Shown here in pieces: positions 18,489 through 19,989 of a stretch of DNA of 64,000 nucleotides. Origin of the DNA: Burkholderiales bacterium (lineage in GTDB: Bacteria > Pseudomonadota > Gammaproteobacteria > Burkholderiales > SG8-41); assembly GCA_022843705.1 (NCBI GenBank), contig JALHND010000001.1:26762-90761 (forward strand). Direction: 5' to 3'. The stretch's first letter is position 1. Every line of letters starts with the position of its first letter. The notes under the pieces were generated by a model. The model was not told the DNA's origin. It did no database searches and saw only the letters and a list, made by a program, of their open reading frames with translations. The translations under genes and the position numbers were made by a program.

Positions 18489-19658
18489 TCAGGCGCTTTC
18501 GTAGAGGCGGGTCATCACGAATTCGCGATGGCCCAGCGCCTCTGCAGCGGTCAGCCGGCCGTTGCAGGTGCGGAGCATGATTTCAATCAGCTCGTCGCCG
18601 GTCTGCTCGAGGTTTTTCTCCCGCTGCAGCAGTCCCGAACAGTCGTAGTCGACGTGTTCGCTCATCGTGCGCACGGTGCGCGGATTGGCACAGAGCTTGA
18701 TCACCGGGATGATCGGGTTGCCGATGACGTTGCCCTGGCCGGTGGGGAAGAAATGCACCACGTAGCCGGAAGCCGCGCACAGCGTGACCATCTCGGCGGC
18801 GGCCGAGGACGAATCCATGAACCACAGACCCGGCTTGGTCGGGGTCTCGGCCTTGTCGAGCACGCCGATGACCTTGCACTTCTTGCCGATCTTCTGGATG
18901 TTGCCCAGCGCCTTTTCCTCGATCGTGGTCAGGCCGCCGGCGATGTTGCCCTTGGTCGGCTGCGACTCGGACAGGTCGCTGGTCTTGTGGCGCTCGACCA
19001 CTTCCTGGTAGCGGTTGAACATCTTCATGAAATCCTCGCGCACCTGCGGCGTCGCGCAGCGGTCGGCGACAATGTTCTCGCCGCCGGTGATTTCCGTGGT
19101 TTCGCCAAAACACATCGTCACGCCCAGCGGCTCGAGCTTGTCGAAGGCGCTGCCGACGGTCGGGTTTGAGCCGCAGCCGGAGGTGGTGTCGGATTCACCG
19201 CACTTGGTCGACACCCAGAGATCGCTGATCGGGCATTCGGTGCGCTGCAGCTCGGACGCCCACTGCACGTATTCCTTGGCAACCTTGGAGGCGCGGAAAA
19301 TGGTGTCGTGGTCGCCGTGCATCTCGATGCCGAAACCGGTGACCGGCTTGCCGGTCTTGGCAATGCCGTCGACGACCTTCTTGGCCCAGCCTTCCTCGAT
19401 GCAGATCACCACCACGGCGGCGACGTTCGGGTTGGAGCCCGCGCCGATCAGCGTGCGGAAATGCAGGTCGAGGTCGGCGCCGAACTGGAGCCGCCCGTAG
19501 GGATGCGGAATCGCCAGCGTGCCCTTGACGTTGTTGGCCACGGCTTCGGCGGCGGCATTCGACAGGTCGTCCACCGGCAGGATCAGGACGTGGTTGCGGA
19601 CGCCGACGCGGCCGTTCTCGCGGCGGTAGCCCATGAATGTGGTTTTGCTGTTGATCAT
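18489..19658 (-). CDS. UxaA-family dehydratase/lyase large subunit (SuyB-like)
   Basis: ORF trimmed to the ATG at 19658, after GGAGAAAC. Sequence [28 protein letters not shown]...; the altronate-dehydratase C-terminal domain family without its own SAF domain. Confidence 0.8.
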
Positions 19659-19707
19659 TTCAGTTTCTCCGTAGGGATCGGGATCGCGGTTGGCTTGCCT
19701 GCCGCCC

Positions 19708-19989
19708 TTACCAGCGCTTGGTCTTGATGTTGTGGACGTGGGCGTGCTCGCCGACCTTGATGTCAGCCACAGCCTTGCCGATGTCGAAACCATACTTGAT
19801 GATGGTGTCGCCCTTCTTGATGTCGCGGAGCGCCGCCTTGTGGCCGATGGGAATGTCGTTGATCGCCTTGACCTTGATCGTGGAATCGTCTTCCATGACC
19901 CAGCCGATCATCTCCTGGCCGGCCTTGATGCCTTCGATGACGGCCACGCCGACCATGTCTTTCTTGTCGTGAATCAGTAAGTGAATCAT
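19708..19989 (-). CDS. SAF-domain small subunit of a UxaA-family lyase (SuyA-like)
   Basis: 93 aa with an AGGAGG RBS. Contains [12 protein letters not shown]...[25 protein letters not shown]...I..GEHVH, the typical UxaA N-terminal SAF domain encoded as a separate gene. Confidence 0.75.

Follow-up and report, generated by a model that had tools for sequence, protein, structure and literature searches.

Here we analyse a 64,000-nt stretch of Burkholderiales bacterium contig JALHND010000001.1 (assembly GCA_022843705.1, positions 26,762 to 90,761; hereafter the window), and in it a minus-strand gene pair, designated suyA and suyB, together with the gene block that this pair heads. The suyA gene (19708–19989, minus strand) is an open reading frame (ORF) with an ATG start and encodes a 93-aa SAF-like protein, the counterpart of the N-terminal domain of GarD and the predicted small subunit of a sulfolactate sulfo-lyase, while suyB (18489–19658, minus strand) encodes the predicted large catalytic subunit of 389 aa, recognized from its Pfam matches and its homology to SuyB. 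The two genes are separated by 49 nt on the same strand, and each has a ribosome-binding site, AGGAGG at 5 nt 5′ of the suyA ATG and GGAG upstream of the suyB ATG. On the same strand follow, in order, genes for a thiamine diphosphate (ThDP) enzyme, for SdhB-, SdhC- and SdhD-like subunits of a succinate dehydrogenase (SDH)-like complex, a sulfatase, a periplasmic binding protein (TctC1), the alpha and beta subunits of a class-I-fumarase-like hydratase, an SdhA-like flavoprotein, a second binding protein (TctC2) and an Ldh_2-family dehydrogenase, with RecQ next. SuyAB is the (2R)-sulfolactate sulfo-lyase, EC 4.4.1.24, a heteromer whose SAF-like subunit of ~8–10 kDa and larger subunit of ~42 kDa are encoded side by side.

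The gene pair and its relatives

An initial annotation of the window had described a split pair of 93 aa and 389 aa, and both ORFs are present where it placed them; products of the same two lengths were also called on four independent metagenome contigs carrying an identical large protein. Pfam comparison of the suyB product gave matches to GD_AH_second (5e-32) and GD_AH_C (4.7e-87), and the protein aligned to the E. coli galactarate dehydratase structure 6u7l (residues 122–504, 1.5e-34), GarD being its sole matched relative in the PDB. The designation of the small protein as a SAF subunit holds in so far as it is homologous to the GarD N-terminal domain, with positions 6–75 covered in the match to the NCBIfam galactarate-dehydratase model (3.8e-8), but its match to Pfam SAF is weak and misses the threshold (E = 0.002, 19.1 bits, cut-off 21). 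These domain matches place the pair in the UxaA/GarD superfamily (COG2721). NCBIfam has no SuyA or SuyB model and the pair scores far below the galactarate-dehydratase cut-off, so that membership is not decidable from that collection.

A tblastn search of plasmids and chromids with the large subunit returned 461 records, which were divided by a wide gap in identity: 13 records lay at 63–82% and all others at 39% or below. The top match, at 82%, was SuyB of Cupriavidus pinatubonensis, where the cluster runs from a LacI regulator through hpsN, hpsO, a major facilitator superfamily (MFS) transporter and an hpsP-type dehydrogenase to the small and large UxaA genes. The gene order in C. pinatubonensis JMP134 has been given as hpsRNOUPsuyAB, with SuyAB as an Fe2+-dependent sulfolactate lyase (PMC11382572). 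A Caballeronia pair embedded in a sulfonate cluster was 80% identical in its large subunit, and the pairs of Paracoccus versutus (68%), Sinorhizobium and Methylobacterium (70%) were 68–70% identical, and have a sulfite oxidase, a GntR regulator and a SuyZ-type sulfate exporter among their neighbours. In P. versutus, whose pair served in all comparisons as a congeneric stand-in for the purified P. pantotrophus enzyme, the GntR gene is divergent, the SuyZ-type 'putative sulfate exporter' is directly downstream and the sulfite oxidase is close by. Downstream of a Rhodococcus pair (63% identity) come genes for an aldehyde dehydrogenase, an MFS transporter, two hydroxyacid dehydrogenases and an Ldh-family oxidoreductase, and an SlcC-like gene is among the neighbours. 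The small subunit was 61% identical to C. pinatubonensis SuyA and 58% identical to Paracoccus SuyA.

Identity of the large subunit to split sugar-acid dehydratases was only 33–39%, and to E. coli UxaA and GarD 27–28%. As the initial annotation had cautioned, split UxaA pairs do occur in sugar-acid contexts: a Bacillus pair (38–39%) lies within an L-fucose cluster with a lactonase, a short-chain dehydrogenase/reductase, an FAH-family gene and fucU, and an E. albertii pair (38–39%) adjoins a 2-keto-3-deoxygluconate (KDG) permease. An alignment of 13 large subunits was used for neighbour-joining trees in 100 bootstrap replicates, each rooted on UxaA. A seven-member SuyB clade that includes the window protein was monophyletic in 100/100 replicates, the window protein grouped with the Cupriavidus and Caballeronia proteins in 100/100, and the sugar-acid clade, with 100/100 support, left it outside. 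The phylogenetic check that the initial annotation had proposed therefore placed the protein with SuyB and not with the sugar-acid dehydratases.

Four cysteines are conserved in the UxaA/GarD superfamily 'except for sulfolactate sulfo-lyase' (PMC6336799). At the corresponding alignment columns 153, 191, 227 and 300, the window SuyB has L32, R56, a gap and C153, so that three of the four dehydratase cysteines are lost; this pattern is common to 7/7 proteins of the SuyB clade, whereas UxaA, GarD and the Bacillus and E. albertii proteins have Cys at all four columns. The CG[EG]SD..SG..NP motif around C153 is kept in the window SuyB. On the basis of its 63–82% identity to pairs in sulfonate clusters against at most 39% to sugar-acid types, its clade membership and its SuyB-type cysteines, we assign the pair with high confidence, at the level of sequence, as the two subunits of (2R)-3-sulfolactate sulfo-lyase SuyAB, an already-known family, which bears out the resemblance to SuyAB suggested by the initial annotation.

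A split UxaA pair in Variovorax sp. PBL-E5 (locus L092, 4523–9286) was observed separately: it is 38% identical to SuyB, lacks the same three cysteines and falls outside the SuyB clade. It is accompanied by a hydroxyacid dehydrogenase, TctC, an Ldh-family oxidoreductase and a GntR regulator, and looks like a sulfolactate module.

The genes from suyAB to the Ldh_2 gene

All genes of the block are on the minus strand. The ThDP enzyme (16716–18368, 550 aa) belongs to the 2-hydroxyacyl-CoA lyase, benzaldehyde lyase and oxalyl-CoA decarboxylase group by its Pfam TPP_enzyme_N, M and C domains; every NCBIfam match is below cut-off, and the nearest solved structures are the 2-hydroxyacyl-CoA lyase 7pt1 and benzaldehyde lyase. 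Orthologues directly adjoin the SDH-like genes in Methylobacterium oryzae (55%) and C. necator N-1 (46%); the Sulfitobacter orthologue (47%) lies ~1.6 kb upstream of such genes. One idea is that this enzyme could act on sulfopyruvate.

The SDH-like complex is encoded by genes for an iron-sulfur subunit (SdhB-like, 15992–16705; Pfam Fer2_3 and Fer4; 237 aa, also in an independent gene call), two membrane subunits of 115 aa each that were recovered by gene calling (SdhC-like, 15590–15937, Pfam Sdh_cyt 1.8e-7; SdhD-like, 15246–15593, Sdh_cyt 7.9e-14) and, farther along the strand, a 571-aa SdhA/FrdA-like flavoprotein (9358–11073; Pfam FAD_binding_2 and Succ_DH_flav_C), the proposed flavoprotein of a 3-sulfopropanoate dehydrogenase. 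Its catalytic residues H242, E255, R286, H354 and R399 are retained. The residue that links flavin adenine dinucleotide (FAD) in E. coli SdhA, His45 in the motif RSHTV, is replaced by Cys (GCTR), and T254 by Glu, in the window protein and in all eight family members compared. The NCBIfam scores of the flavoprotein are below cut-offs (499 against 718 for TfrA, the best match, and 430 against 567 for sdhA_frdA_Gneg), as is that of the SdhB-like subunit with PRK05950 (214.9 bits, cut-off 228). The replaced FAD-linking histidine, the Glu at position 254 and the sub-cut-off NCBIfam scores mark the predicted complex as distinct from the housekeeping SDH. The Cys at the flavin site may indicate an 8-alpha-S-cysteinyl or non-covalent flavin, or a redox couple that differs.

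The hydro-lyase consists of an alpha subunit (11809–12684; Pfam Fumerase 4.8e-86), the proposed 3-sulfoacrylate hydratase, and a beta subunit (11188–11799; Pfam Fumerase_C), which aligned to the M. jannaschii fumarase beta chain 7xky_B. The alpha subunit retains the three cluster cysteines and CQDTG, and the beta subunit TTTSARM and GKGG, including the canonical residues for the distal carboxylate. The beta subunit scores below every NCBIfam cut-off (for example, 133.7 against 145).

The TctC proteins mentioned in the initial annotation are there, two in number and each matching Pfam TctC: TctC1 (12756–13718, 9.3e-77), which has a signal-peptide-like N-terminus, and TctC2 (8274–9260, 9.5e-68), which is paired with the Ldh_2 gene. 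They are periplasmic binding proteins of the tripartite tricarboxylate transporter (TTT) type. The Ldh_2-family dehydrogenase, likewise where that annotation had put it (7250–8263, or to 8323; Pfam 3.4e-95), is a candidate ComC-type (2R)-sulfolactate dehydrogenase; its top NCBIfam match is L-sulfolactate dehydrogenase NF040650, at 201 bits against an equivalog cut-off of 500. Ldh-family genes also accompany suyAB in Caballeronia (50%), M. oryzae (44%), Sinorhizobium (43%), Paracoccus (43%) and Rhodococcus (36%).

A Cys-type sulfatase (13816–15222; Pfam Sulfatase and SGSH_C, CSPNR motif at residue 64) is an optional member of the block. Situated between sdhD and tctC1, it has no signal peptide and would be cytoplasmic, and in some sister loci TauE, a gene of the ComA or phosphosulfolactate synthase family and DUF3604 take its slot (for example, 12661–16476 of locus L018).

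To follow the block across genomes, we scanned one genome per species with SuyB and obtained 80 loci, all from uncultured Burkholderiales or Betaproteobacteria metagenome-assembled genomes (MAGs), with SuyB 88–100% identical; block membership was counted in the 44/80 loci having at least 9.5 kb downstream of suyB. In the window's order, SdhB was found in 42 of these, FumA in 41, FumB in 40 and SdhA in 39, and among the optional members the ThDP gene was present in 32 and the sulfatase in 28. Two sister loci (L029 and L070) are minimal, holding only suyAB-tctC2-ldh2. SuyB had a median identity of 93% (minimum 88%) across the MAG loci against a median of 49% for a 561-aa protein flanking the block, so these genomes are not near-clones. 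In locus L003, SuyB is 100% identical to that of the window and the neighbouring proteins only 63–98%. The higher conservation of SuyB suggests either that purifying selection on it is very strong or that the gene has spread recently; median identities elsewhere were 79% for the ThDP enzyme, 71% for TctC1 and 70% for the GntR regulator. A TauE/SafE gene lies inside the block in 11–12 sister loci, for instance in L018, where the order is suyAB, sdhB, sdhCD, TauE (PF01925, 8e-26), a ComA-family gene, DUF3604, TctC, ATP-binding cassette transporter genes and fumAB.

The combination is also found outside this lineage. A Methylobacterium oryzae plasmid carries the same components on one strand, with identities of 60% for SuyA, 70% for SuyB, 64% for SdhB, 54% for SdhC, 52% for SdhD, 67% for FumA, 62% for FumB, 66% for SdhA, 55% for the ThDP enzyme, 44% for Ldh2 and 35% for the regulator, and its cluster also holds TauE/SafE, an SlcC-like oxidoreductase, a molybdopterin oxidoreductase and a sulfate-exporter-family protein. 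The arrangement in M. radiotolerans is that of M. oryzae. In Rhodococcus jostii RHA1 the association is looser: ~20 kb separates the genes related to FumB (49%), FumA (46%), SdhA (50%) and SdhB (42%) from a group made up of Ldh2, an SlcC-like gene, SuyB, SuyA and a SuyZ-like gene. What stands between suyAB and Ldh_2, namely the genes of the SDH-like complex and the class-I-fumarase-like hydratase, is a conserved part of the system.

Divergently from suyA, across an intergenic interval of 147 nt, is the gene of a GntR/HutC-type regulator with GntR and UTRA Pfam domains (20137–20895, plus strand), a candidate SuyR. A GntR regulator is found upstream of suyA in 62/80 related loci, and that of the window is 35–44% identical to the suyAB-adjacent GntR proteins of Caballeronia, Sinorhizobium, Paracoccus and Methylobacterium. 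The palindrome GGTCAtatagtTGACC (20082–20097), read from the sequence, overlaps a −35-like hexamer and is plausibly an operator for the GntR protein; the sequence GTCAT[A/C]TAGTTGAC occurs within 260 nt 5′ of suyA in 62/76 related loci, against a background of 0.019 per 259 nt. A consensus scan gave a sigma-70-like promoter match upstream of suyA (TTGACC, 18 nt, TAGGAT; 20058–20087, minus strand) at 9/12 positions, a likeness to the consensus only. Right after the suyB stop, a 14-bp stem followed by GTTTTG (18435–18471, minus strand; read from the sequence) may be an attenuator or a partial terminator, and is not listed by the terminator scan because its T-run is too short. The scan did list a terminator-like hairpin after tctC1, with an 11-bp stem followed by TTTTT (12723–12747, minus strand).

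Outside the block, the region from 22.6 to ~48.5 kb is housekeeping in every gene scanned (rplS, trmD, rimM, ffh, secA, lpxC, ftsZ/A/Q and a Mur ligase). The alanine-rich 561-aa protein (20905–22590, minus strand) has a signal-peptide-like N-terminus and faint tetratricopeptide repeat matches only; it stands upstream of the GntR gene in 51/80 related loci and diverges fast, with identities of 33–81%. Just past RecQ are a TauD/TfdA-family dioxygenase (3999–4946, minus strand) and an FMN-dependent 2-hydroxyacid dehydrogenase (1850–3106, plus strand). TauD-family enzymes include sulfonate and sulfate-ester dioxygenases, and the TauD gene, which adjoins RecQ also in the minimal locus L029, may have a link to sulfur scavenging.

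A proposed route from 3-sulfopropanoate and its alternatives

We favour, with a probability of roughly 0.7, the reading that the SuyAB pair heads a conserved block whose products convert 3-sulfopropanoate by way of 3-sulfoacrylate and (2R)-sulfolactate to pyruvate and sulfite; the steps beyond SuyAB itself we infer from gene context. Under control of the divergent GntR protein, the minus-strand block would be supplied with substrate (3-sulfopropanoate, sulfolactate) through a TctC binding protein. The SDH-like complex of SdhA-, SdhB-, SdhC- and SdhD-like subunits would then oxidize 3-sulfopropanoate, the sulfonate analogue of succinate, to 3-sulfoacrylate, the analogue of fumarate, and the class-I-fumarase-like Fe-S hydratase would add water at C2 to give L-configured (2R)-sulfolactate. 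By our own application of the Cahn-Ingold-Prelog priorities, the L-configured hydration product is (2R)-3-sulfolactate, consistent with the NCBIfam name L-sulfolactate dehydrogenase for ComC. SuyAB would eliminate sulfite from (2R)-sulfolactate, its substrate, leaving pyruvate, and the ComC-type Ldh_2 enzyme would interconnect sulfolactate and sulfopyruvate. No racemase would be needed, since the hydratase would make (2R)-sulfolactate directly.

SDH-like relatives were also found in six-gene clusters without SuyAB, comprising sdhB, two membrane subunits, an sdhA-like gene and hydratase alpha and beta, which we term variant B, variant A being the arrangement in the window, Methylobacterium and Rhodococcus. 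Variant B occurs in Pseudomonas sp. MPC6 (L087), P. versutus (L088), M. nodulans (L094), Sulfitobacter (L095 and L101), C. necator N-1 (L099), NT-25 (L100) and P. seriniphilus (L102). Their flavoproteins are 61–69% identical to the SdhA-like protein of the window. The hydratase alpha of the window is 67% identical to the M. oryzae gene product and 30–37% identical to the variant B hydratases, in which the motifs are C[A/G]DTG against CQDTG and TATASFRF against TTTSARM.

The surroundings of variant B are rich in genes for sulfite and sulfate handling. In Pseudomonas sp. MPC6, TctCBA and TauE flank the cluster, with a sulfite oxidase and cytochrome c nearby, and the hydratase is followed by a coenzyme A (CoA)-acylating (methyl)malonate-semialdehyde dehydrogenase, NIPSNAP and a sulfate exporter. 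The P. versutus cluster is flanked by YeiH, NIPSNAP and TauE; that of M. nodulans by a sulfate exporter, a molybdenum oxidoreductase, cytochrome c and TauE; and that of Sulfitobacter THAF37 by TauE and TctCBA. In Sulfitobacter S190, TctCBA and DUF3604 stand beside the cluster, and in P. seriniphilus YeiH is 7 kb away. C. necator N-1 has the ThDP gene immediately upstream, and MmsA (malonate-semialdehyde dehydrogenase), TctC genes and a TauE-like gene nearby. The NT-25 flanks contain a sulfate exporter, NIPSNAP, TauE, a TRAP transporter, a 'sulfolactaldehyde 3-reductase' homologue (a beta-hydroxyacid dehydrogenase) and gabD. In all, relatives of the SDH-like complex lie beside sulfite or sulfate exporters in ~10 further replicons; those of M. 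nodulans, Pseudomonas MPC6, P. versutus, Sulfitobacter THAF37, NT-25, C. necator N-1 and a haloarchaeon, at 49–69% identity, adjoin TauE, YeiH-type or sulfite-oxidase genes.

We tentatively suggest, at a little short of even odds, that the two variants are hitherto undescribed, CoA-independent routes for 3-sulfopropanoate that mirror part of the tricarboxylic acid cycle, variant A by a membrane-bound SDH paralogue, C2 hydration and SuyAB, and variant B by a like dehydrogenase and by C3 hydration without SuyAB. In variant B, hydration at C3 would yield an alpha-hydroxysulfonate, in effect a bisulfite adduct, that would break up into sulfite and malonate semialdehyde. On this view the lack of SuyAB would be accounted for, as would the malonate-semialdehyde dehydrogenase genes adjoining the MPC6 and N-1 clusters. 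The NT-25 gabD and beta-hydroxyacid dehydrogenase would fit a conversion of 3-hydroxypropanesulfonate by way of 3-sulfopropanal to 3-sulfopropanoate.

Besides an SdhA-like gene (49%) and an SdhB-like gene, a haloarchaeal plasmid of Natribaculum luteum (L089, 9151–16119) carries TauE, a gene of the argininosuccinate lyase family and a split UxaA pair. The large subunit of this pair is 34% identical to SuyB and likewise without the three dehydratase cysteines; Haloarcula sp. GH36 is a similar case. This cluster may be an archaeal counterpart of the pathway in which a class-II lyase replaces the Fe-S hydratase.

Several observations weigh against the 3-sulfopropanoate route. The 80 MAG loci form one lineage, and their synteny is partly inherited. 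Given the hairpin after suyB and the terminator-like site after tctC1, the block may be transcribed in two or three pieces and not as a single operon. In complex II, loss of the histidine that binds FAD covalently is typical of enzymes working in the reductase direction. In the flavoprotein both pairs of carboxylate-binding residues (H242/R286 and H354/R399) are intact, and 3-sulfopropanoate, sulfosuccinate and other substituted succinates are indistinguishable by sequence; the hydratase alpha passes the NCBIfam fumarate-hydratase model NF004885 (298.5 bits against 276). The ThDP enzyme and the sulfatase are unaccounted for by the pathway. Finally, tblastn with TauE, YeiH/SuyZ and SorA-type queries found no such gene in the window, as the initial annotation had said of a sulfite exporter and a sulfite dehydrogenase, nor did it detect an SlcC-like or TctA (or TctB) gene, with most of 48.5–64 kb covered in the exporter and dehydrogenase search by tblastn alone. 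The TauE/SafE genes inside the block of sister loci soften the caveat of the missing exporter.

The alternative that survives best, which we nevertheless consider unlikely, is that SuyAB is combined with an unrelated patchwork, the SDH- and fumarase-like genes serving succinate/fumarate or methylsuccinate/mesaconate and only TctC2 and Ldh_2 going with suyAB as a plain sulfolactate module. The two sister loci reduced to exactly this module, the two hairpins, the fumarate-hydratase score of the alpha subunit and the canonical catalytic residues of the flavoprotein would all suit it. Against it, the order is kept in 42/44 long loci despite flanking proteins at ~49% identity, the combination is met again in Alphaproteobacteria and Actinobacteria, sister loci have TauE and a ComA-family gene inserted inside the block, and sulfite or sulfate exporters flank the SDH-like relatives time and again, also in the absence of suyAB.

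It is quite improbable that the block instead degrades another sulfonated succinate analogue, such as sulfosuccinate by way of sulfofumarate, with SuyAB acting on the resulting 2-hydroxy-3-sulfo acid. The retention of both carboxylate pairs in the flavoprotein and of the canonical distal-carboxylate residues in the hydratase beta agrees with such a substrate, and TTT transporters typically carry di- and tricarboxylates. However, SuyB shares 82% identity with its counterpart in the 2,3-dihydroxypropane-1-sulfonate (DHPS) pathway, whose substrate is sulfolactate, Ldh_2/ComC acts on sulfolactate, and the neighbouring gabD, beta-hydroxyacid and malonate-semialdehyde dehydrogenase genes fit a C3 monocarboxylate; moreover, sulfosuccinate is mainly man-made, yet the block occurs widely among MAGs from freshwater and soil.

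That the pair is a heteromeric sugar-acid dehydratase, for example of the L-fuconate-dehydratase type, a heteromeric form of which is mentioned in PMC6336799, is scarcely credible: split pairs do occur in the Bacillus and E. albertii sugar-acid contexts and galactarate dehydratase is the only NCBIfam and PDB match of the pair, but its identity to those pairs is 38–39% against 63–82% to sulfonate-cluster pairs, the large subunit falls outside the sugar-acid clade and has lost three of the four dehydratase cysteines, and Pfam scans of the block found no lactonase, aldolase, kinase or sugar transporter near it.

Significance and comparison with known systems

3-Sulfopropanoate arises from DHPS through gut and other fermenters, and from homotaurine. 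Its degradation 'has not previously been reported' according to a 2024 article (PMC11489063), in which a thesis is cited for the conversion of 3-sulfopropanoate by way of sulfoacrylate to sulfolactate in Roseovarius, and a 2026 review describes the 3-sulfopropanoate mechanism in Bilophila as unclear (PMC12890257). The gene set is not described in the literature we searched on sulfopropanoate, sulfoacrylate, hydroxypropanesulfonate and sulfosuccinate, with subscription journals outside the scope of that search. The coupling of suyAB to paralogues of complex II and class-I fumarase is a new arrangement, and the best-supported reading of it is a 3-sulfopropanoate pathway new to the searched literature.

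By itself, the pair is another SuyAB, useful for annotation. A protein-database search returned 120 near-identical Burkholderiales proteins bearing automated names only, which were not used as evidence: 'sulfolactate sulfo-lyase subunit beta' at JGI, and 'UxaA family hydrolase' or 'D-galactarate dehydratase' at NCBI. It is these NCBI labels that give the assignment its value, and the missing cysteines provide a simple diagnostic. The block offers candidate genes for bacterial 3-sulfopropanoate breakdown. If the proposed route is correct, it would fill the enzyme gap for 3-sulfopropanoate and, upstream, that for the carbon of 3-hydroxypropanesulfonate and homotaurine; complex II and class-I fumarase would then clearly have been co-opted to handle a sulfonate analogue, and the conserved Cys in the flavin site would be of note in itself. 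The question is directly testable, as the genes occur in the cultivable M. radiotolerans JCM 2831, M. oryzae, R. jostii RHA1, C. necator N-1 and P. versutus. The frequency of the block in uncultured freshwater, soil and drinking-water Burkholderiales points to a sizeable, so far uncounted sink for C3-sulfonates.

SuyAB was purified from Paracoccus pantotrophus NKNCYSA, according to Rein et al. (2005) as cited in PMC6336799 and PMC12421959. Like the SuyAB of Cupriavidus and Paracoccus, the pair in the window consists of two genes, for products of ~90 aa and ~390 aa, that have lost the same three cysteines; as at the Paracoccus locus, there is a divergent GntR gene, with Ldh-family (ComC-type) and TctC genes nearby. 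Unlike the known SuyAB loci, the window is without hpsNOP (for DHPS), cuyA, SlcC, SuyZ and TauE, and has instead the SDH-like complex, the class-I-fumarase-like hydratase, the ThDP lyase-type enzyme and the sulfatase. With the SlcC/ComC-SuyAB sulfolactate module of Chromohalobacter salexigens and Paracoccus (PMC11382572, PMC12421959) it shares the ComC-type Ldh_2 enzyme, SuyAB and a TTT-type binding protein, but no SlcC partner is detectable in the window by tblastn, leaving the two-enzyme racemase incomplete.

The sugar-acid dehydratases, namely UxaA and GarD of E. coli (GarD structure 6u7l) and the heteromeric L-fuconate-dehydratase type, share with the pair the SAF-like N-terminal part and the GD_AH_second and GD_AH_C domains, at identities of 27–39%; the pair differs from UxaA and GarD in being split in two genes, has Leu, Arg and a gap for the first three cysteines, and has no sugar-acid context. 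The SDH-like complex resembles complex II (E. coli SdhCDAB and FrdABCD) in its four SDH-type subunits and its catalytic His/Arg/Glu set, and the hydratase resembles class-I fumarase and L-tartrate dehydratase (7xky) in the three cluster cysteines, CQDTG, TTTSARM and GKGG. Unlike complex II and fumarase, these genes are interleaved with suyAB, and the proposed substrate would have a sulfonate in place of one carboxylate; the predicted dehydrogenation followed by hydration would mirror the conversion of succinate through fumarate to malate.

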